From: a virus
Lineage: Duplodnaviria; Caudoviricetes
Length of the DNA: 64,000 nucleotides
Strand: one strand, 5' to 3'
IMG/VR virus record: IMGVR_UViG_3300020388_000010
The notes under the pieces were generated by a model that was not told the origin of the DNA, did not search any database, and saw only the letters and a program-made list of their open reading frames with translations. Made by a program: the position numbers and the translations under genes. Below, one piece after another: positions 2,083-12,983 of this stretch (within the stretch, counting starts at the first letter, position 1; each line of letters begins with the position of its first letter).

Positions 2083-2946
2083 GTGCCAATAAGAACATTA
2101 CCAAGTAGAGCTATTGCAGATGCATCAATACAGGCTGTTGATATTGCAAACTCTAGTATATCAAAAACAAAAATAGATGCAGATACACGATTAGGTCTGC
2201 AAAACGATTCAATTATATTAGATGGAACAGATGGCGCTGGTGCAAACAAGGGCGACTTTTTATCATTAAATGGTACAGATGGTTCTAGTACAAATGCAGA
2301 TGATAGAATACTTTTTGACGAAACTTTTATTGATAAAGTAAACTTATTTAACATAAACACATTGGGTTCAAGTGGACAAGCTCTTAAAGTTAATGATGCT
2401 GGAAATGATTTTACATTTGGTTCTGCTGGTACTAATGTTAAAATTACAGAAACAGATGTTACAGGCAGTGTTTCTGAAGTAATATTTGATAATACAGTAA
2501 TGACTGGTTATACTAGATTTAAAATCGTAGTTCATAATCTTACATTTTCAACAACAGCAGATTTAAGAATGGCAGATTCACCAGATAATGGTTCAACTGT
2601 ATCATTTACTGGTTATTATGGTTCTCACTATTCACAGTTAGGTTCTTCATCACACGCAGTTGGTTCTGATACTGATACAAACTATTATGATTTTGCTGGT
2701 TGGAATTTTAAAGCAAATATAGGAAATTATCTTGAGTTTGATTGTGTAAATTTTGGTAGGTCAGATACTAATGATTACAAAAAATATATAGTTAATTGGA
2801 TTCATTATAATAACAATAATAATCATTATGGTGTTATAAATTACTTTACAAGTTCATTAGCATCTGCAATGAATTGGATAAGATTTTATCCATCAAGTGG
2901 TACAATAGATGAGGGAAAATTTATTGTTTATGGTGTAAATGAATAA
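2083..2946 (+). CDS. Putative virion fibre/appendage protein (GTG start)
   Basis: AGGAG RBS; N-terminal IADASIQAVDIANSSISKTKI repeats, LDGTDG motifs, beta-rich C-terminal domain ending IRFYPSSGTIDEGKFIVYGV typical of marine phage fibres. Confidence 0.6.
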   Translation: MPIRTLPSRAIADASIQAVDIANSSISKTKIDADTRLGLQNDSIILDGTDGAGANKGDFLSLNGTDGSSTNADDRILFDETFIDKVNLFNINTLGSSGQALKVNDAGNDFTFGSAGTNVKITETDVTGSVSEVIFDNTVMTGYTRFKIVVHNLTFSTTADLRMADSPDNGSTVSFTGYYGSHYSQLGSSSHAVGSDTDTNYYDFAGWNFKANIGNYLEFDCVNFGRSDTNDYKKYIVNWIHYNNNNNHYGVINYFTSSLASAMNWIRFYPSSGTIDEGKFIVYGVNE

Positions 2947-3335
2947 TGTCAAAAGTAAATAATATTCTAGATGAAACATTGATAGGTGAACAAATTATGA
3001 AGGTTGAAGATAAACCAAAAACTGTTGTCAAAACAAATAATGAAGGTAATGATTTTGAATATCAAAGACAAAATTTTTATTCATTAGTTGAAAAAGGACA
3101 AGATGCAATAGAAGGTATATTAGACCTTGCAAGGGAAAGTGAACATCCAAGAACATATGAAGTTGCTGGACAACTCATAAAAAATGTTGCAGAGGTCACA
3201 GAGAAACTTGGTGATTTACATTTGAAGATGCAAAAGTTGAAAGAATTACCAGACAAGGGGCCGAAGAATGTAACTAATGCATTGTTTGTTGGTTCTACAA
3301 CAGAACTACAAAAAATGTTAAAAAATAACAAGTAG
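2946..3335 (+). CDS. gp16: Terminase small subunit gp16
   Basis: DFEYQRQNFYSLVEKGQDAIEGIL, SEHPRTYEVAGQLIK, NALFVGSTTELQKML. Confidence 0.93.
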   Translation: MSKVNNILDETLIGEQIMKVEDKPKTVVKTNNEGNDFEYQRQNFYSLVEKGQDAIEGILDLARESEHPRTYEVAGQLIKNVAEVTEKLGDLHLKMQKLKELPDKGPKNVTNALFVGSTTELQKMLKNNK

Positions 3336-3340
3336 GTAAA

Positions 3341-5239
3341 ATGTCTGATACTAAAGTAAACAGCAATATGATTGAAGAATCTGGTAAAGTTAGTTCTGGA
3401 CAGATTCAACCTAATTCAATTTCAACTGCTGATATAACAAACTCATCAATTACTAATAGTGATATCTCTCCATCAGCTGCAATCGCATTAAATAAATTTA
3501 GTTTGCCTGGAAGTTCATCAGATTTTTTAAAAGGTGATGGAAGTTTTGGTACTGTTGATTTAAGTGCAGTAGGTACTAATGCATTTAATGTTGGTGTGTT
3601 AGGTTTTAAACTCGCAGTCAATGAAGGACTCACTATTTTTAATCTTGTTGATGGTATCGTAGACGAATTTAATAGTGAAGGTGGTATTGATACTGGCGAA
3701 AACTCAAACGCATCTTACGAATCAGCATCAGATTTTTATCAAAATTTATCACCAACGCCTGGTGTTGCAATGCATCTCGGTGTAGATGCAGTTACATTTG
3801 AAAACCCAGAACACGCACCATTAATTACATACACTTCTCAAGAAGCTACATTCGGTGCATTTGGAACTCAAGGTAGTATAACATTTCCCACATTAACAAC
3901 TTCAATAGAAGCAACTATGGTTGGTGCTGGTGCTGGAAACAATAGTCAAGGTTCTGGAGGTTCTGGTGGTAGTGTACAAGGTACAATAGCAAGTCCATCA
4001 ATCGCTGGTGCTACTTGGGATTATGTTGTAGGTGAAGCTGGTGTTGGCCCACAATACAGTACCCCCCAATATCCAAGTGGAGATATAGGTGCTACTGGTG
4101 GTTATGGTGGTGGTGCTTATGGTGCTATTGGTGGAGGTGGTGGTTTTACTGGAATTTTTGATGGTGAAGTTACAATTATAGAGGGTGGTACATATGGTGA
4201 AACTGGAAATTATCATACACCAGGCACACCTAATAATTATCCATTTGAGGGCCCAGGTTTTTCAGATACAGTTTCTCCAACTAATGCTAGTGAAGCAGTT
4301 TTAATTGTAGGTTCTGGTGGTGCTGGTGAAAATTCAAACGGTGCTCCAGCAGCACAAGGTGGTGGTGGTGGATTTACTGCTGGAACTAATGGTTCTGGTG
4401 GTTTTAGTGTACCTACTGCTAGTTCTGGTGGTACTAATGCATCTGGTGGGGGTGCAGACCAAGAAGCAAACGGACATTTAGGGGCATATCCAGTTGGTGA
4501 AATTTCTGGAGGAGGCCCAGCAGAGTGGACACAAGAATCTCCACACCCAGATGCAATACATTTTCAAGGTGGTGGAATGATGTACCCACCTTATCACTAT
4601 GGTGGTGGTGGTTCTGGATATCACGGAGGTGGTGGTACATCTGACCCAGGCGGTTATACTGGTGGTACTGGTGGTGGTTCTGGATATTCAAATCCTACAT
4701 ATGTTGCAACTCCATCTTTAGAATATGAAACAGCAGTTGGTAGTGCATCAAATCCTACTCCATTAAGTGTATTTGACGAAGCACCATATTATACTGGATT
4801 GCCTTCACCAAGACAAGCACTTTTTGCTGATGGAGCTAGAGGTGAAGGGGCAACTAGTGGTGCTACAAATACTGGTGGTGATGGTGGTATTCTTTTAGTT
4901 TTTGATGCTGGTTCAAGTTCAACAAGTATGACTTTAGTATCAGATACATTTACTGCGAGTGCGACACCATCTACTTCAAGAGTTGTGTTGTTTGCAGAAA
5001 TAGCAGATGATTTAAATACTGATGTTGCAATATCAGTAACAAGAGATAATACAACATACAATTCAGTATCATTAACTGATACTGGTTTTGTAAGTGGTTC
5101 AAGTGGTATTAAAATATATACTGGTAGCACACCTTTAACTGGAAGTGCTAGTCCACAAGTTCAGATGAGGTGGAAAGTTGTTGGGTCATCACTTACTGGT
5201 ACAAATAAAATTCACGGAGTTGCACTACAATGGGCATAA
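3341..5239 (+). CDS. Glycine-rich fibre/receptor-binding-like protein, paralogue 1
   Basis: Conserved N block (AFNVGVLGFKLAVNEGLTIFNLVDG), Gly-rich centre, conserved C block ending KIHGVALQWA. Confidence 0.7.
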   Translation: MSDTKVNSNMIEESGKVSSGQIQPNSISTADITNSSITNSDISPSAAIALNKFSLPGSSSDFLKGDGSFGTVDLSAVGTNAFNVGVLGFKLAVNEGLTIFNLVDGIVDEFNSEGGIDTGENSNASYESASDFYQNLSPTPGVAMHLGVDAVTFENPEHAPLITYTSQEATFGAFGTQGSITFPTLTTSIEATMVGAGAGNNSQGSGGSGGSVQGTIASPSIAGATWDYVVGEAGVGPQYSTPQYPSGDIGATGGYGGGAYGAIGGGGGFTGIFDGEVTIIEGGTYGETGNYHTPGTPNNYPFEGPGFSDTVSPTNASEAVLIVGSGGAGENSNGAPAAQGGGGGFTAGTNGSGGFSVPTASSGGTNASGGGADQEANGHLGAYPVGEISGGGPAEWTQESPHPDAIHFQGGGMMYPPYHYGGGGSGYHGGGGTSDPGGYTGGTGGGSGYSNPTYVATPSLEYETAVGSASNPTPLSVFDEAPYYTGLPSPRQALFADGARGEGATSGATNTGGDGGILLVFDAGSSSTSMTLVSDTFTASATPSTSRVVLFAEIADDLNTDVAISVTRDNTTYNSVSLTDTGFVSGSSGIKIYTGSTPLTGSASPQVQMRWKVVGSSLTGTNKIHGVALQWA

Positions 5240-7149
5240 CAAAGTTAGAGAATCAAAATTTAAGTAATGACGCTATTGGAAGTGGTGAAATAAATACTGG
5301 TTCAGTTGATAGCTCTAAGATAGGTGCAGAAGTAAAAAACGAAGACATCTCTCCTAGTGCAAATATTTCAGCAACTAAGTTAGCACTACCTGGCCCACCA
5401 TCACAATTTGTTCGTGGTGATGGTTCATTTGGTGCTATTGATACAACTGGTATTAATGAAAATGCATTTAATATTGGTGTGTTAGGTTTCAAGATGGCAG
5501 TTAATGATGGACTCACAATATTTAATTTAAAAGATGGTGTAGTAGATGAATTTCACGATGAAAGTGGAATAGATACTGCTGAAAATACAAATGCAGCTTA
5601 CGATTCTACTTCAGATTTTTATAGTAATCAAGGTACAAATGTTGACTTACCTTCTCCACAAATAGGTAGAACATCTATCACTTCTACTGGTTCTGGAACA
5701 TATTCTGTTGAACCCACTATTACTGCAGTTGATGTGTTAATTATCGGTGGTGGAGGAGGAGCTGGTACTGGTGGTTATAACAATACTTCTGGTGGCGGTG
5801 GTGGTGCTGGTGGTTTAATATTTTATGAAGATTATCCAGTTACTGGTGGTGGTAGTATTCCAGTATCAGTAGGTGCTGGTGGCAGAGGTGGTGGTGGTGC
5901 ATCTTCATCTATTGCTGGATATCTTGGTGGTTCACCTGGCCCATATGAAACTGCGTTTGATAATGCAACTGCGATTAATGAAGCAAAAACATTTAATTTT
6001 TACAATCCAGCAGAACCAGCACCTCATCAATTTTTTTATTCGCCAGGTGAAAAAGGAACGGACTCTGTTTTTGGTGCAGCTCCAGCATTAGTTTTAACTG
6101 CTGAAGGTGGTGGTAGAGGTGGTGGATATGGTCACACGAGTTATATTGTATCTTTTGAAGATGCAACAATACAAGGTGGTAGTGCTGGTGGAGTTGGTTC
6201 ATATACTTCAGAAGATAATTCTGAAGCTGGAGCTGCAGAACACACATCTACTCAAGTATCAAATCATCCAGTTCCTGGCTTGTCAAACGACCCTTTACCA
6301 GGCACACCAATAAATGCACGAGGAGCTTTTGGAAGTGCTGGTGGTGTAGCAAGTGGAACTGCAGATAACACTACTCACGGAACATCTGGTGGGGGCGGTG
6401 GTGCTGGTACTTCTGGTGGTGATGGTACTGATTCACCAGAAACTGGTGGTGCTGGTGGTGAGGGTTTATTGTACAATGTTGCAGATGGTTCAACACCAGT
6501 AGGATATGCTGGTGGTGGTGGAGGTGGTGGTTCTGATACTGCACCTCCAAATGAAAGTGTACCTTTTGGTGGTGGTATTGGACAACTAACAACAAATAAC
6601 GAGTCAACGCCTTGGCTACAACCAATCGCTGCACTTGGGCCTGAATCTGGTGGTAATCCAGTTGATGCATATGGAAGTACAGAATCTTATCCAGGCGGTG
6701 ATGGAACTGCAAATCGTGGTGCTGGTGGAGGAGCTGGTATCACTCAAGGAGCATCGCCAACTGGTGTGGGTATTGGTGGTAATGGTGGCTCTGGTGTTAT
6801 AATAGTTACAGAAAGTAGATATAATGTTTCTAATACAAGTATGACTTTAATATCCGATACATTTACTGCAAGTTCAACACCAACTACAGCTAGAATAGTA
6901 GTCTTTGCAGAACTGCCTGATGGTCTTTCTGATTTTACTATAAGTGCAACAAGAGATAATAGTACATTTAATGCGATAACTTTAACAGATGAGGGTTTTG
7001 AAGCAGGAAGTTCTGGTATAAAAATATTTACTGGTTCAACTCCTTTAACTGGTTCAGCAAGTCCACAAGTGCAACTTAGATGGAAAATAGTAGGTTCATC
7101 TTTAAGTGGTGCAAATAAAATTCACGGAGTATCATTACAATGGGAATAA
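5230..7149 (+). CDS. Glycine-rich fibre/receptor-binding-like protein, paralogue 2
   Basis: Same N and C blocks; VDVLIIGGGGGAG...GGSGVIIV glycine-rich domain. Confidence 0.7.
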   Translation: MGITKLENQNLSNDAIGSGEINTGSVDSSKIGAEVKNEDISPSANISATKLALPGPPSQFVRGDGSFGAIDTTGINENAFNIGVLGFKMAVNDGLTIFNLKDGVVDEFHDESGIDTAENTNAAYDSTSDFYSNQGTNVDLPSPQIGRTSITSTGSGTYSVEPTITAVDVLIIGGGGGAGTGGYNNTSGGGGGAGGLIFYEDYPVTGGGSIPVSVGAGGRGGGGASSSIAGYLGGSPGPYETAFDNATAINEAKTFNFYNPAEPAPHQFFYSPGEKGTDSVFGAAPALVLTAEGGGRGGGYGHTSYIVSFEDATIQGGSAGGVGSYTSEDNSEAGAAEHTSTQVSNHPVPGLSNDPLPGTPINARGAFGSAGGVASGTADNTTHGTSGGGGGAGTSGGDGTDSPETGGAGGEGLLYNVADGSTPVGYAGGGGGGGSDTAPPNESVPFGGGIGQLTTNNESTPWLQPIAALGPESGGNPVDAYGSTESYPGGDGTANRGAGGGAGITQGASPTGVGIGGNGGSGVIIVTESRYNVSNTSMTLISDTFTASSTPTTARIVVFAELPDGLSDFTISATRDNSTFNAITLTDEGFEAGSSGIKIFTGSTPLTGSASPQVQLRWKIVGSSLSGANKIHGVSLQWE

Positions 7150-8939
7150 CAAAAGTAAATAAAAATCTTATTGGTGATAGTGCATTAGATAGTAATAAAA
7201 TTGCAGATGGTAGTATTGGTGCAGATGAGATATTAGACAATACCATTATCAATGCAGATGTATCACCACAAGCAAGTATTGCATTTTCAAAATTAAGTTT
7301 GCCTGGCAGTTCGTCAGATTTATTAAATGGTGCTGGTGGATTTCAAGTTGCAAATGTAGCACAAACAGATACAAATACTTTTAATATTGGTTTATTAGGG
7401 TTTAAGATGGCAGTCGCAGAAGGACTCACAATATTTAATTTAAAAGATGGTGTTGTGGATGAGTTTAATGATGAGTCTGGTATAGATACTGCCGAAAATT
7501 CTAATGTATCATATGATGATTCTTCAGATTTTTACTCTGGTGGTTCTGGTTTTAATAACTCTACTCCACCAACTCAAAATATATTTTCATTTACAGCAAA
7601 TGGGCCTCACACATATACTGTTGAGTCTGGTGTTACAAATGTTAATGTTTTAGTTGTTGGAGGTGGTGGAGGTGGAGGCTCTGGTGGTTATAATGCTGTT
7701 AAAGGTGGTGGTGCTGGTGCTGGTGGTTTAATCTACTATCCAAATTATCCAGTAACGCCTGGTGGTACAGTTGCAGTAGTGGTTGGTGCTGGTGGAGAAG
7801 GTGCTGGATATAATCCTCCAGCGCCTGGTTCAACACCTTACACTCCTACTGCAAGACCAGATGGTCGTAATGGAACTGGCGAATTCGGTGGTTATGAACA
7901 CCCACAATATTCATACCCAATGGCATACACATATTATTCGCCTGGACAAACTGGTACAGATTCTTCTTTCGGGCCTCTTATAGGTGAAGGTGGAGGTGCT
8001 GGAGGTGGTTATCTAACTTCTGGTTCGCATCCATATATGGGTGGTGTATCTGGTGAAACTTATCACGAAGGTGGTTCTGGTGGTGGTGGTGGTGCTGGGC
8101 CTGGGCCATATATGGGGCCTGGTGGAGAAGGTAAACAAGATGAAAATCATCCAATTCCATTGACTCCACAAATTTTACCAGTAAATTCTATTGGAAGTTT
8201 TGGAAATGATGGTGGTGTAAATCAACCAGATGCTGGGAATGAACTAGCAACAGCTGGTGGTGGTGGAGCTGGTGGTGTTGGTGGAGATGCAGAAGGCCCT
8301 ATCGGTGGAGAGGGTGGTAATGGTTTACTTTATAATATTGCAGATGGTACTACATCAGTAGGTTATGCTGGTGGTGGTGCTGGTGCTGGTTTAGGCGAAT
8401 TTCCAGAGGGTACTTCAGTACCTTTTGGTGGTGGAGATACAAACACCACCCCATTAGTACAACCAAATTGGTTTCCTGGCTTGCCTGGTGCTGTAAATAG
8501 TGGTGGAGGTGGAGCTGGTGCAAGAAATATTAATCCTTCCACTCCTGCTGGTGGTGCTGTTGGAGGAGATGGTGGGCCTGGTGTTGTTATTGTTAAGGAA
8601 ATACAAGGTACTATATCAGATACATCAACAACCCTAGTTTCAGATACATTTACTGCAAGTTCAACTCCGACTAAAGCAAGAATAGTTGTTTTTGCAGAAA
8701 TTAATAGTACATTAAATTCCGAATTAACTGCATCTGCAACTAGAGATAATACAACTTTTAATGCGATAACTTTAACAGACACTGGGTATGTGTCTGGTTC
8801 TTCTGGAACTAAAATATTCACTGGTAGTACACCTTTGACTGGTACTGCAAGTCCTCAAGTTCAAGTTCGTTGGAAAATAGTTGGTTCTGGATTATCTCAT
8901 ATTAATACTATTCACGGTGTTTCACTTCAATGGGCATAG
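7140..8939 (+). CDS. Glycine-rich fibre/receptor-binding-like protein, paralogue 3
   Basis: Same N and C blocks; VNVLVVGGGGGGG...GGPGVVIVK domain. Confidence 0.7.
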   Translation: MGITKVNKNLIGDSALDSNKIADGSIGADEILDNTIINADVSPQASIAFSKLSLPGSSSDLLNGAGGFQVANVAQTDTNTFNIGLLGFKMAVAEGLTIFNLKDGVVDEFNDESGIDTAENSNVSYDDSSDFYSGGSGFNNSTPPTQNIFSFTANGPHTYTVESGVTNVNVLVVGGGGGGGSGGYNAVKGGGAGAGGLIYYPNYPVTPGGTVAVVVGAGGEGAGYNPPAPGSTPYTPTARPDGRNGTGEFGGYEHPQYSYPMAYTYYSPGQTGTDSSFGPLIGEGGGAGGGYLTSGSHPYMGGVSGETYHEGGSGGGGGAGPGPYMGPGGEGKQDENHPIPLTPQILPVNSIGSFGNDGGVNQPDAGNELATAGGGGAGGVGGDAEGPIGGEGGNGLLYNIADGTTSVGYAGGGAGAGLGEFPEGTSVPFGGGDTNTTPLVQPNWFPGLPGAVNSGGGGAGARNINPSTPAGGAVGGDGGPGVVIVKEIQGTISDTSTTLVSDTFTASSTPTKARIVVFAEINSTLNSELTASATRDNTTFNAITLTDTGYVSGSSGTKIFTGSTPLTGTASPQVQVRWKIVGSGLSHINTIHGVSLQWA

Positions 8940-10570
8940 AAAATCAATATCTTGGAAATCCTAATTTAAAGAAAGCATTTGTAAGTCAAGAGTTTACAAA
9001 AGAAAATATTCTTGAGTTTCAAAAATGTATGAATGACCCACAGTATTTTATAGAAACATATATTAAAATTGTATCATTAGACAAAGGTCTGATACCATTT
9101 GATATGTATCCTTTTCAAAAAGAAATGGTTGGTACATTTCACAACAATCGTTTTACAATCTGTAAACTACCTAGACAATCTGGTAAAACAACCACAATGG
9201 TTTCGTATATATTACATTATGTTTTGTTCAATCAAAATATGAATGTAGCAATACTTGCAAACAAAGCTGCAACTGCAAGAGATATTTTATCCAGATTACA
9301 ACTTGCATATGAACATTTACCTAAATGGTTGCAACAAGGAATACTATCGTGGAACAAAGGTAGTTTAGAATTAGAGAATGGTTCACGCATAGTTGCAGCC
9401 TCAACTTCATCAAGTGCAGTTCGTGGTGGTTCATACAATATGATATTTTTAGATGAGTTTGCGTTTGTACCTACAAATATTGCAGAAGAGTTTTTTAGTT
9501 CAGTTTATCCTACTATATCATCTGGTCAATCTACAAAAGTGATTATTGTATCAACACCAAACGGTATGAATATGTATTATAAATTATGGACAGATGCAGA
9601 AACAAAAAAGAATACTTATGTACCCATAGAAGTTCATTGGTCTGAAGTTCCAGGCAGAGATGAAAAGTGGAAGAAAGAAACGATTGCAAATACAAGTGAA
9701 TCACAATTTCAAAAAGAATTTGAGTGTGAGTTTTTAGGTTCTACAAATACATTAATAAATGCATCTATAATAAAAAATATTCCTTTAAGAACGCCTTTAA
9801 CATCTAATGCTGGTCTTGATGTATATGAAAAACCTAAAAAAGGACACACATATGTTATTGTTGCAGATGTAGCTAGAGGTATACAAGGCGATTCTTCTGC
9901 GTTTACTGTTATGGATGTATCTCAATTACCATATAGATTAGTAGGTAAATATAAAAATAATGAAATAAAGCCTATGTTATTTCCAAACATTATCAAAGAT
10001 GTTGCACTTGCATACAATCAAGCATTTGTATTAATAGAAGTAAATGACATTGGTGACCAAGTTGCAAATTCTTTACAATTTGACTTAGAGTATGATAATC
10101 TTATAATGGCAAGTATGAGAGGTCGTGCTGGTCAGATAGTTGGTGGTGGTTTTAGTGGTGGTAAATCACAACTTGGTGTGAGAACAACTAAGGCAGTAAA
10201 AAAAATTGGTTGTTCTAATCTAAAAACAATGGTAGAGTCTAATAAGATTATATTAGAAGATTATGATATAGTTGCAGAGATGTCTTCATTTGTTCTTCAC
10301 GGACAGTCATATCAGGCAGAAGAAGGACACCACGATGATTTAATGATGTGTTGTGTATTATTTGCGTGGTTATCTGGTCAAACTTATTTTAAAGAACTTA
10401 CTGATAGTGATGTTAGAGCTAAATTGTTTGCAGAAAGTCAAAATCAGTTAGAACAAGACCTTGCACCATTTGGATTCTTAGATAATGGTATTGATGACCC
10501 TATACCACAAATAGATGAATATGGTGAAAGATGGACTCCAGTTGTTAGGAAGTATGATACAAATTGGTAA
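8930..10570 (+). CDS. gp17: Terminase large subunit gp17
   Basis: YLGNPNLKK, Walker A PRQSGKTT, Walker B IFLDEFAF, STPNG, nuclease ADVARG and HHDDLMM. Confidence 0.97.
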   Translation: MGIENQYLGNPNLKKAFVSQEFTKENILEFQKCMNDPQYFIETYIKIVSLDKGLIPFDMYPFQKEMVGTFHNNRFTICKLPRQSGKTTTMVSYILHYVLFNQNMNVAILANKAATARDILSRLQLAYEHLPKWLQQGILSWNKGSLELENGSRIVAASTSSSAVRGGSYNMIFLDEFAFVPTNIAEEFFSSVYPTISSGQSTKVIIVSTPNGMNMYYKLWTDAETKKNTYVPIEVHWSEVPGRDEKWKKETIANTSESQFQKEFECEFLGSTNTLINASIIKNIPLRTPLTSNAGLDVYEKPKKGHTYVIVADVARGIQGDSSAFTVMDVSQLPYRLVGKYKNNEIKPMLFPNIIKDVALAYNQAFVLIEVNDIGDQVANSLQFDLEYDNLIMASMRGRAGQIVGGGFSGGKSQLGVRTTKAVKKIGCSNLKTMVESNKIILEDYDIVAEMSSFVLHGQSYQAEEGHHDDLMMCCVLFAWLSGQTYFKELTDSDVRAKLFAESQNQLEQDLAPFGFLDNGIDDPIPQIDEYGERWTPVVRKYDTNW

Positions 10571-10871
10571 ATGCATCTTCATCAATTAAATCATTATCTT
10601 TTTTTAAAAAACAATTATGACAAACTATTACATTGTTGTCTATATGTTCTAATAACAATTTTCTAGTATCTTTTTTTAAACTTTTCTTTTTAGAATCTGC
10701 ACGAATCTTTCTATCATCTGGATAAAATTTTAATACCACTATTTCAGACTCACCACAATATTTACAAGACTTATCTCTTAATTGTTCATTAATCCACTTA
10801 TCTTTTAGTCTACGGTGTCTTCTTGCAACTTTTCGTATGGTATTACGGTATTTTTGATAATGTTCACTCAT
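10545..10871 (-). CDS. HNH-like Zn-binding protein, probably degenerate endonuclease
   Basis: CKYCGE...VCHNCF cysteine pairs; likely start MSEHYQKY; the usual F-H-H catalytic motif reads FYPD. Confidence 0.6.
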   Translation of the reverse strand: MSEHYQKYRNTIRKVARRHRRLKDKWINEQLRDKSCKYCGESEIVVLKFYPDDRKIRADSKKKSLKKDTRKLLLEHIDNNVIVCHNCFLKKDNDLIDEDAFTNLYHTS

Positions 10872-10920
10872 ATTTATATTTAGACTTGGTATAAAAACAA
10901 ACATACAAAAAACGATTTTT

Positions 10921-10928
10921 TATAAATA
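10921..10928 (+). promoter_or_regulatory. T4-type late (gp55) promoter for gp18
   Basis: TATAAATA 43 nt upstream of gp18; a mirror TATAAATA lies on the - strand at 10871-10878. Confidence 0.75.
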
Positions 10929-10970: not shown

Positions 10971-12983
10971 ATGGGATTTCAAGTTTCTCCAGGCGTAGAA
11001 GTCAAAGAAGTTGACCTAACGAATATCGTTCCTGCTGTTTCTACAACTATTGGTGCTGTTTGTGGCCCCTTTGAAAAAGGGCCAGTAAGTGAAATAACAA
11101 GTATCAGTTCAGAAAAACAACTCGTTGAAGTATTTGGTAAACCAAATGCAAACAATTTTGAGTATTTTTTCACAGCTGCAAACTTTTTACAGTATTCAAA
11201 TTCACTAAGAGTTGTAAGAACTGAAAGTACATTGAAAAATGCATCTTCTGGTGGTTCTGGTATTTTAATCAGAAACACTTTGCATTATCAAGAGGCTTTC
11301 GCAGACGGACAAGGTACTCACGGTACTTGGTCAGCAAGAACGGCTGGTATTCACGCAAACGGAATTAAAATAGACATTTGTGATAAAAACAATTTTTCAG
11401 AAATGTCAAACAAACAAACTAATGATGCCAGTGCAAGTGCTGGTGATACAACAATTACAATGGATGCTATTGATGCTACTGATTTTGCAGTAGGTGAAGT
11501 TATAGAATTTTATTCAAACGCTGGTGGTACAGTTTTCGCTGTAGGACACGAAGCACAAAAATATGAAATTACAGCAACAGATACATCTGGTGAAACAATT
11601 ACAATCAGACAATTAGATGACCCTGCTGCAAGTGGATTAATCGCAGATTTAGCAGACGATTCTTATGTAAAAAGATACTGGAGATTTGCAGATTTATTTG
11701 ATACTGCTCCAGGCACATCTGAATTTGCAACTGCAAGAGGTGTTCTTGATGATGAAATACACATAGTTGTATATGATTCATCTGGAAGACAAACTGGTTT
11801 TGATAACGATGTTGCTGGTGAGAGATTAAACTCTATACTAGAAACATTTGCTTTTGTATCAAAACACCCAGAAGCAACTACACCTCAAGGTAATTCAAAT
11901 TATTATCCAGATGTAGTTTATAGGGATTCTAAATTTGTTTATTGGGGAGACCACCCAACTGCAGCTATTGATGCATCTGGTGACTGGGGTCAACCTCTTT
12001 CATCTGATTTATCAGTACAAGGTTCAAGTGCTTTTAATAAATTTACAACTGGTGTAGAAAATGTAGATAGGTCTACACTTGCAAATGGAACAGACGATTA
12101 TGCTGTTACAGATGGTGAACAACTTACTGCATACGGAAGATTTGATGACGGTGAAGCAGTTGATGTAAATCTAATTATGGCTGCAAAGGCAAGTTCAACT
12201 CTTGCAACAAACTTAATCACTATTGTTGAGAAAAGAAAAGATGCATTAGTCTTTATTTCTCCAGAAAGAGCTGATGTTGTAGGTGCTGCCGATTCTAATA
12301 CACAAACTACAAATGTCAAGAACTTTTTTGATTTACTTCCAAGTACATCATTTGCAGTTTTTGATAGTGGTTACAAATACCAATATGATAGATTTAACGA
12401 TGTATATCGTTATGTACCATTAAATGGTGATATTGCTGGTGTAACTGCATATACTGAATCTGTTGCAGATGCGTTTTTCTCACCTGCTGGTTTTACTAGA
12501 GGTCAAATTAGAGGTGCAGTTAAACTTGCATACGAACCTAATAAAGACCAAAGAGATACATTATATAAAGCAAGAATTAATCCAGTTAACTCATTTCCTG
12601 GCCAAGGTACTGTGTTATTTGGTGATAAGACTGCTCTTGCAAAACCAAGTGCATTTGATAGAATTAATGTTAGAAGACTATTCATTATTCTTGAAAAAGC
12701 AATCGCTACTGCAGCTAAGTTCCAACTATTTGAGTTCAATGATGAATTCACAAGAGCTCAGTTTAAAAACTTAGTAGAACCTTTCTTGAGAGAAATTCAA
12801 GGACGAAGAGGTATTACTGACTTTAAAGTAGTTTCAGACGAATCTAATAACACTGGTGAAGTAATTGATAGAAACGAATTTATTGCTGACATTTTTGTCA
12901 AGCCAACAAGGTCTATCAACTTTATCACTCTTAACTTTGTCGCTGTAAGAACTGGTGTTGCGTTTACAGAGATAGGAGGGTAA
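10971..12983 (+). CDS. gp18: Tail sheath protein gp18
   Basis: FQVSPGVEVKEVDLT, DSGYKYQYDRFND, SPAGFTRG, FDRINVRRLF, KPTRSINFITLNF. Confidence 0.97.
   Translation: MGFQVSPGVEVKEVDLTNIVPAVSTTIGAVCGPFEKGPVSEITSISSEKQLVEVFGKPNANNFEYFFTAANFLQYSNSLRVVRTESTLKNASSGGSGILIRNTLHYQEAFADGQGTHGTWSARTAGIHANGIKIDICDKNNFSEMSNKQTNDASASAGDTTITMDAIDATDFAVGEVIEFYSNAGGTVFAVGHEAQKYEITATDTSGETITIRQLDDPAASGLIADLADDSYVKRYWRFADLFDTAPGTSEFATARGVLDDEIHIVVYDSSGRQTGFDNDVAGERLNSILETFAFVSKHPEATTPQGNSNYYPDVVYRDSKFVYWGDHPTAAIDASGDWGQPLSSDLSVQGSSAFNKFTTGVENVDRSTLANGTDDYAVTDGEQLTAYGRFDDGEAVDVNLIMAAKASSTLATNLITIVEKRKDALVFISPERADVVGAADSNTQTTNVKNFFDLLPSTSFAVFDSGYKYQYDRFNDVYRYVPLNGDIAGVTAYTESVADAFFSPAGFTRGQIRGAVKLAYEPNKDQRDTLYKARINPVNSFPGQGTVLFGDKTALAKPSAFDRINVRRLFIILEKAIATAAKFQLFEFNDEFTRAQFKNLVEPFLREIQGRRGITDFKVVSDESNNTGEVIDRNEFIADIFVKPTRSINFITLNFVAVRTGVAFTEIGG

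Follow-up and report, generated by a model that had tools for sequence, protein, structure and literature searches.

A tandem array of glycine-rich fibre-like paralogues between gp16 and gp17 of a marine T4-like phage

The stretch of DNA analysed here (hereafter the window; 64,000 nucleotides (nt), to which all positions refer) is IMG/VR virus record IMGVR_UViG_3300020388_000010. According to its open reading frame (ORF) list and to Pfam and PHROG matches, its 5' end is the neck module of a marine T4-like myophage. There, three consecutive paralogous genes coding for glycine-rich, fibre-like proteins, named A, B and C, occupied the slot between the small terminase gene gp16 and the large terminase gene gp17. 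The large terminase (TerL) displayed 75% identity to that of Methylophilales phage Melnitz, 67% to those of Pelagibacter phages HTVC008M and Mosig and about 65% to those of cyanomyoviruses; the phages hosting this fibre family are marine T4-like phages related to pelagimyophages and to Melnitz. The array, its borders and its junctions were as follows:

2946-3335, + strand: small terminase gp16-like, 129 amino acids (aa), left border of the slot (phrog_445, E 2e-43)
3341-5239, + strand: fibre paralogue A, 632 aa; N block 3341-3745, glycine-rich centre 3746-4921, C block 4922-5236
5230-5239, + strand: A/B junction ATGGGCATAA, stop of A overlapping the start of B
5230-7149, + strand: fibre paralogue B, 639 aa; N block 5230-5628, centre 5629-6834, C block 6835-7146
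7140-7149, + strand: B/C junction ATGGGAATAA
7140-8939, + strand: fibre paralogue C, 599 aa; N block 7140-7541, centre 7542-8621, C block 8622-8936
8930-8939, + strand: C/gp17 junction ATGGGCATAG, terminase start inside the Q-W codons of C
8930-10570, + strand: large terminase gp17, right border of the slot (Pfam Terminase_6N and Terminase_6C)

The three proteins displayed overall identities of 44-45% in protein alignment. Most of this similarity fell in two blocks, one of 133-135 residues at the N-terminal side (N block) and one of 105 residues at the C-terminal side (C block), for which tblastn within the window returned E values of 1e-40 to 1e-49. The centres enclosed by these blocks (360-402 residues) were merely 25-42% alike. 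Such block similarity is far beyond chance. The first-pass annotation of this DNA had described the same arrangement of similar N blocks, 105-aa C blocks and divergent glycine-rich centres, and the ORF list, the protein alignment and tblastn all agreed with it. At the DNA level, paralogues within the window shared 72-82% identity over stretches of 88-232 nt situated in the N blocks, in the C blocks and at the edges of the centres; these stretches are likely handles for exchange. Paralogue A starts with MSDTKVN, five bases past gp16, while B and C have the N terminus MGITK and gp17 begins with MGIENQYLGNP. A tblastn search of the GenBank phage collection with paralogue C returned no match, low-complexity masking being a probable cause. 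Megablast of the locus gave matches to P-TIM68 within the gp17 (TerL) part of the query only, and the nearest virus record (G001) is a 47-kb fragment that does not include the locus.

The G+C content, about 0.30 around the array, rises to 0.38-0.47 within the three fibre genes because of their GGN codons. Antisense ORFs within 3400-8800 (for example 152 aa at 8363-8821, - strand) are Pro/Ala-rich mirrors of this GGN-rich coding strand, and the long ones are almost certainly not genes.

A scan of IMG/VR provided 50 related loci, whose genes were mapped by BLAST against the window proteins, and the N, centre and C blocks of 95 family genes were clustered into module types (N types for N blocks, M types for centres). 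Across these loci the gp16-gp17 slot held two or three fibre genes. Paralogue A, with a centre of type M2, occurred at position 1, adjoining gp16, in all close relatives. The closest loci (L004-L007 and L027) had a backbone (gp14, gp15, gp16, gp17 and gp18) identical to that of the window at 100% in protein and 99.1-99.6% in nt, the gp16 protein of L004-L007 included. Their fibre centres, measured against L006, were 93-95% identical in nt, and B was replaced by a 239-aa centre-less allele with a C block merely 80% identical in nt. The possibility that this middle gene arose in L004-L007 as a fresh in-frame deletion of B was rejected, given a C block at 80% against a backbone at 99% and the same join in distant lineages; it is a separate allele rather than a recent deletion. 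MAFFT misplaced the gap of this 239-aa form, which was placed from blastn segments.

A second set of loci (L008 and L013-L016, backbone 93-95% in nt) contained a chimeric middle gene in which B-type N and C blocks framed a C-type centre. This centre displayed 79% protein identity to that of C, compared with 41% between the B and C centres. Only the centre of B was replaced, colinearity in blastn being lost at about 5882 and about 6775. Two-gene slots with other N-block types were found in L023 (backbone proteins 97-99%) and L012. Beyond the slot, relatives carried a second array of two more paralogues some 2.8 kb upstream of the neck gene (L006:279-4861), followed on its 3' side by a 170-aa ORF, two 2-oxoglutarate (2OG)-Fe(II) oxygenases and gp13; this region falls just beyond the 5' end of the window. 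Pairing of modules was relaxed throughout: centre M1 was combined with N1, N2, N9 and N10, M5 with N3, N6 and N8, M6 with five N types and M7 with several, and M4 occurred with N3 in the upstream array and with N1 and N20 next to gp17.

Copy number and order at the locus were therefore clearly not fixed among relatives, and mosaicism was evident in the two- and three-gene slots, in the centre-less forms and in centres distributed across N blocks, positions and arrays. Copy-number change and chimeras had been anticipated from the single sequence. The accompanying idea of plug-in cassettes stood in part: modules were exchanged, but the usual unit was the glycine-rich centre more than the whole gene, with breakpoints partly inside conserved glycine-rich segments.

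Rows of three to six family members were also observed in more distant phages (L050:7149-17997, with six members; L026:518-8981; L048:9707-15959). These arrays have separate start codons and display the T4-type late-promoter-like motif TATAAATA after some genes.

As to the nature of the centres, domain PF21722 (Gly_rich_2) was recognised in B (26.7 bits) and C (37.4 bits) above the gathering cutoff of 24.3, and is carried by most database relatives of the family. A profile built from 53 family members, used both for the PDB search and as AlphaFold2 input, matched the tail fibre chains of cyanophage Pam3 (7ypx_A, E 1.2e-5; 7yfw_a, E 1.7e-5). In this match the first strand with its GGGG motif was aligned significantly, and the terminal GG.G..G.V.V motif lined up in a separate weak, non-scoring stretch (-2.1 bits). 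The AlphaFold2 model of paralogue C (ma8183e37eabc, single chain) was of moderate confidence (predicted local distance difference test (pLDDT) 67), dropping to low over residues 1-85; a helix occupies 75-98 and is followed by strands. Compared by VIA-align, this model matched 7ypx_A with Z 13.2 (217/250 residues, root-mean-square deviation 6.5, 24% identity) and 7yfw_a with Z 12.5, and Foldseek returned a probability of 1.0 for the Pam3-type fold. A tail-tip chain of mycobacteriophage Bxb1 followed at Z 11.6 (191 residues, 30% identity). In BFVD, most matches were to viral 'glycine-rich domain-containing proteins', contributed by cyanophages, prasinoviruses and a haloarchaeal virus.

Homology of the centres to the TNF-like/glycine-rich domain of Pam3 tail fibre gp24 was found at both profile and fold level, and bears out the fibre- or adhesin-like nature attributed to the three genes at first reading. 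Gp24 is the sole tail fibre of Pam3 and forms part of the virion; recognition of the host receptor was proposed for the variable distal tip of its glycine-rich domain, and the protein resembles the S16 gp38 adhesin (PMC9608196). Like the centres described here, it combines a TNF-like and a glycine-rich domain with a GGGGxGG-type stem and variable distal loops (PDB 7ypx, 7yfw; PMC9608196, PMC9942802), the fold match amounting to 24-27% identity. Yet Pam3 gp24, a protein of 289 aa, has the domain at its C-terminal end, docks through a helical shaft and has a chaperone gene dedicated to it, whereas in the present family the domain appears to be inserted in a jelly-roll scaffold, is followed by the conserved 105-aa C block and occurs in three to five paralogues per genome, with no chaperone gene in the array.

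The scaffold itself was delineated by the alignment of jelly-rolls from carbohydrate-binding modules (CBM) and Eph ligand-binding domains to the model of C, over residues from about 100 to 599 (125-144 aligned residues, Z 9-10). The C block by itself supplies fewer (105-118 residues), so that the sandwich would be completed by strands from the end of the N block and the glycine-rich domain would be an insert. In the model, the jelly-roll seems indeed to be split by the inserted domain; without an insert, the scaffold is widespread in the form of mini genes of 190-245 aa. Three independent observations agree with this layout. Close relatives contained genes of 233-240 aa in which the N block is fused straight to the C block, the join lying between ...YSN and (S/P)TT(S/T)MT... 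of the protein. Centre-less forms (194-240 aa) were complete genes, each found on up to 57 contigs, and a profile made from them collected 1529 cluster representatives (clusters at 50% identity). Most matches to this profile came in two stretches split at about profile position 125, and some were continuous. Other members of the scaffold family carried ConA-like lectin, F5/8 type C or ALK-type glycine-rich modules, which fits a carrier role for ligand-binding modules.

At the junctions, DNA alignment showed that all three boundaries share the form ATTCACGG(A/T)GT..CA.T.CAATGGG(C/A)ATA(A/G). Each overlap is 10 nt long, ATGGG(C/A)ATA(A/G), with the downstream ATG inside the Q-W codons, and the common junction previously noted at the three positions listed above was confirmed. 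The protein ending encoded there, (K/T)-I-H-G-V-(S/A)-L-Q-W-x-stop, was found in every member of the family at any location, two exceptions displaying S-W, and forms the last jelly-roll strand in the model of C (residues 589-598). When Q is encoded by CAA, the Q-W codons (CAA-TGG) contain an ATG. Read from this internal ATG, CAA TGG GCA TAA (Q-W-Ala-stop) becomes ATG GGC ATA, so that M-G-(I/V/L) is dictated by the overlap. The M-G-I start, earlier singled out as a special feature, is thus forced by out-of-frame reading of Q-W-Ala-stop, and it is evidence neither for a special connector nor for a shared origin of the starts of gp17 and the fibre genes. The C-terminal motif is the family-wide structural ending and is also present in non-chaining arrays (38 distinct non-overlapping ends). 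Inheritance of the M-G-I of B and C from gp17, through a duplication spanning the terminase start, was considered and found unnecessary because the overlap gives ATG GGC ATA regardless of history. A microhomology-mediated duplication may still have occurred.

The overlap was used in the gp16-gp17 slot only. Upstream arrays and more distant phages displayed an ATG of their own 1-5 nt past the stop (MPNP..., MSKTR..., MTTRV...), so that chaining is a local feature of the slot. The overlapping form keeps the M-x-x-T-K N-terminal length of the family exactly. All 13 distinct fibre-gp17 junctions had the gp17 start at the Q-W ATG, and no alternative in-frame gp17 start was found 5' of the conserved YLGNP; the array-less TerL of Melnitz, HTVC008M and Mosig have their own ATG, one or two residues nearer to YLGNP. 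It had been suggested that the array always leaves the terminase correctly initiated. This holds insofar as gp17 always starts in the Q-W codons of the last fibre gene, but any in-register homologous exchange would have the same effect.

A further observation concerned the glycine codon of H-G-V. This codon was GGA, which creates a GGAG 10 nt before the ATG, in 11 of the 14 distinct fibre-to-fibre junctions, in 5/38 non-overlapping ends and in none of the 13 gp17 junctions (GGA makes up 23% of glycine codons in the window). The enrichment at fibre-to-fibre junctions (Fisher p ~2e-5, for junctions that are related by descent) hints at selection for a Shine-Dalgarno-like site at fibre starts. 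The Shine-Dalgarno sites initially assigned to the junctions were accordingly retained to a limited extent for fibre-to-fibre boundaries, where GGAG is enriched, but not for gp17. Avoidance of CAA in non-chained ends gave no signal, CAG occurring in 8/38 of these ends compared with 14% genome-wide. The overlap is a conserved protein ending co-opted as the start of the next gene, and translation may be coupled across it.

In T4, gp16 and gp17 are adjacent. The first-pass annotation had taken this for the normal state, which is correct for T4 but not for marine T4-like phages: the same slot is occupied by a 677-aa F5/8-C protein in Melnitz, by a 69-aa ORF in Mosig, by a 2OG oxygenase and a tryptophan halogenase in HTVC008M, and by metabolic genes and endonucleases in P-TIM40 and Syn9. 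The fibre genes are no intrusion into a normally closed gene pair. The 677-aa Melnitz protein was examined as a candidate homologue and rejected, displaying weak N-terminal resemblance only (E 0.16). As summarised in PMC2984593, which cites Millard 2009, g15-g18 of marine T4-like phages is a hyperplastic region with 4-14 inserted genes. The array lies at the same genomic site of variable inserts as in cyanomyoviruses, from which it differs by being made of homogeneous fibre paralogues chained by overlap into gp17. In pelagimyophages, the host recognition cluster ends further upstream, at the neck genes, and tail fibres were unidentifiable by homology (PMC7029224).

Among systems with comparable variation, the gp38 adhesins of T-even phages undergo exchanges within or near conserved motifs (PMC3157838), which the breakpoints inside conserved glycine-rich segments recall. 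In the outline given there and in Tetart 1998 (cited in the same source), gp38 of T2/T6/S16-type phages follows the same logic as proposed for the present array, with a conserved glycine-rich core, hypervariable receptor-binding segments and a specificity swapped between phages by recombination within or beside the conserved motifs. In contrast, gp38 is one small protein capping the long tail fibre, with neither a tandem array nor a scaffold from which the centre can be removed. No gp38 family appeared in the Pfam, PHROG or PDB profile hits, and S16 gp38 was not among the fold matches listed. CBA120-like phages encode four tailspikes, receptor-binding proteins whose genes lie side by side and which widen or partition the host range, as several genes would here. 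Those tailspikes are enzymatic and have distinct docking domains that build a branched complex, whereas the docking/helix region is nearly invariant among the present paralogues.

The remaining features of the neck and packaging region were:

94-1263: gp14-like neck protein, 389 aa (phrog_460)
1263-2063: gp15 sheath stabiliser (phrog_227)
2083-2946, + strand: ORF287, variable fibre-like gene between gp15 and gp16, 287 aa; possibly an associated part
10971-12983: sheath gp18

ORF287 had no Pfam or PHROG match. It was 92% identical in protein and 96% in nt to its counterpart in L006, where backbone genes reach 99-100%, and 22-69% identical to those of other relatives. Its N terminus weakly resembled the fibre N block of paralogue A (E 0.098), and it is probably a further fibre-like variable gene. 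The T4-type late promoter motif TATAAATA was absent from the + strand between positions 1 and 10870 and present at 10921-10928, just 5' of gp18. This distribution suggests that the run from the neck genes through gp17 is probably a single late message with tight coupling. Some side observations were also made. The gp14-like protein, at 389 aa, is longer than those of Melnitz, HTVC008M and Mosig (270-290 aa), and its extra C-terminal part is acidic with a repeated (D)EVITG...G...A motif. A 119-aa reverse-strand ORF (10545-10904, -) lies between gp17 and gp18, where Melnitz has a reverse-strand hypothetical gene in the same place. In locus L010 (1830-3470), gp17 occurred as two ORFs (202 and 343 aa) that are 98-99% identical to the window TerL; this split is a frameshift, a stop or an assembly error.

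Our best explanation, to which we give a probability of roughly three in four, is that A, B and C are tandem fibre or adhesin paralogues whose inserted glycine-rich binding domains are shuffled by recombination, the overlaps being a by-product of a fixed C-terminus. Each protein would consist of an extended N-terminal region, a nearly invariant helix probably serving trimerisation or docking, a CBM-like jelly-roll sandwich formed by the end of the N block and the C block and, inserted in this sandwich, a TNF-like/polyglycine domain of the type found in the receptor-binding tip of Pam3 gp24. The proteins would be located in the virion, form trimers and bind receptors. As the centres differ among paralogues, the phage would display several specificities in binding, or five over the whole genome with the upstream array included. 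The conserved N and C blocks and the conserved glycine-rich segments at the centre edges would provide the homology for exchange. By recombination, a mechanism suggested by the sequence comparisons, centres would be swapped, or removed to give mini forms, and copy number would change; the partners would be paralogues, the two arrays or co-infecting phages, and the outcome would be a near-clonal backbone carrying a host-range island. The 10-nt overlaps would simply follow from CAA-TGG holding an ATG that is used by the next gene and by gp17, and the genes from the neck through gp17 could be translated as one tightly coupled late message.

Several points weigh against this explanation. Paralogue A stayed below the Pfam threshold, with no hit above the cutoff. 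The N-terminal region of the proteins is unlike that of Pam3 gp24 and of low confidence in the model, and a fibre chaperone gene is absent within the array. The AlphaFold2 model of the centre-less form was poor (pLDDT 47), so that the split jelly-roll rests on alignment ranges and profile matches. Finally, the related loci are metagenomic assemblies, in which such repeats can be mis-assembled; the same arrangements were recovered from independent samples (L004-L007 with L027, and L013-L016).

The junction might instead be an adapted connector, selected because whole fibre genes can be added or dropped while a ribosome-binding site and a start are re-created for the next gene and for the terminase. 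Its conservation at every fibre-fibre and fibre-gp17 boundary of the slot (27 distinct sequences), the excess of GGA (GGAG) at fibre-to-fibre junctions over non-overlapping ends and over genome-wide usage, and the exactly preserved M-x-x-T-K length would all suit such a device. Yet the motif is the universal C-terminus of the family, even where no gene follows, M-G-I/V/L is imposed by the overlap, and in arrays that the family forms elsewhere the next gene has a separate ATG, 1-5 nt past the stop. Moreover, the counted junctions are phylogenetically related and the GGA enrichment stems from few independent events, 12 of the 13 gp17 junctions have GGT, and exchanges mostly concern centres rather than whole genes. 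We consider selection for a connector rather doubtful. A role as neck, collar or whisker fibres or as head decoration, comparable to fibritin (wac) beside the neck genes in T4, would still place the proteins in the virion and would match the position of the array within the neck and packaging module (gp13, gp14-like, gp15, gp16), with the second array of relatives just upstream of gp13, as well as an N terminus that does not resemble the helix bundle by which Pam3 gp24 docks to the baseplate. Little weight can be given to gene position, however, as the hyperplastic region of cyanophages also holds metabolic genes, and the centres have no solved homologues other than the Pam3 tail fibre and a Bxb1 tail-tip protein, which makes this assignment unlikely.

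That the proteins never enter virions and act in or on the infected cell, for example in superinfection exclusion or envelope modification, appears very improbable. Envelope-modifying genes do occur in the variable islands of pelagimyophages (PMC7029224), but neither a signal peptide nor an enzyme domain appeared in the Pfam and PHROG searches, the proteins to which homology was found are structural fibre proteins, and the genes lack a promoter motif of their own and have late structural genes as neighbours. A different extension starts from the scaffold helix and first strands, which are nearly invariant across all paralogues and phages, so that the paralogues might co-assemble in mixed trimers or compete for a single docking site. 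Such hetero-trimers, or a shared docking site, could display different glycine-rich tips per virion or fibre, with mini subunits as blanks and chained translation setting the subunit ratios; this combinatorial display is a speculative proposal that we rate as quite unlikely.

With shuffled fibre paralogues as the preferred reading, the array brings together fibres of the glycine-rich Pam3 type and shuffling of the gp38 style, both of known kinds, and does not represent a new class of system. Three features are, as far as found, undescribed: a scaffold that carries its binding domain as an insert and is common in centre-less form, the extent of the family in phages akin to those of abundant marine heterotrophs, and such a clean comparative record of centre exchange between positions and between arrays. 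Cultivation is difficult for phages that infect the most abundant heterotrophs of the ocean (SAR11, OM43 and relatives), and in pelagimyophage genomes receptor-binding proteins reportedly could not be identified (PMC7029224). A large family (1529 clusters at 50% identity) that joins a fixed scaffold to an exchangeable binding module, with module exchange seen in near-clonal backbones, offers concrete candidates for host-range determinants and may provide a marker for following phage-host arms races in metagenomes. It may likewise represent a natural scaffold tolerant of insert replacement, and its overlapping junction is a small, clean case of a protein ending reused as the start of the next gene. 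With host binding as the probable function, the array would be a host-range toolkit of an ordinary kind in an unusually tidy arrangement.

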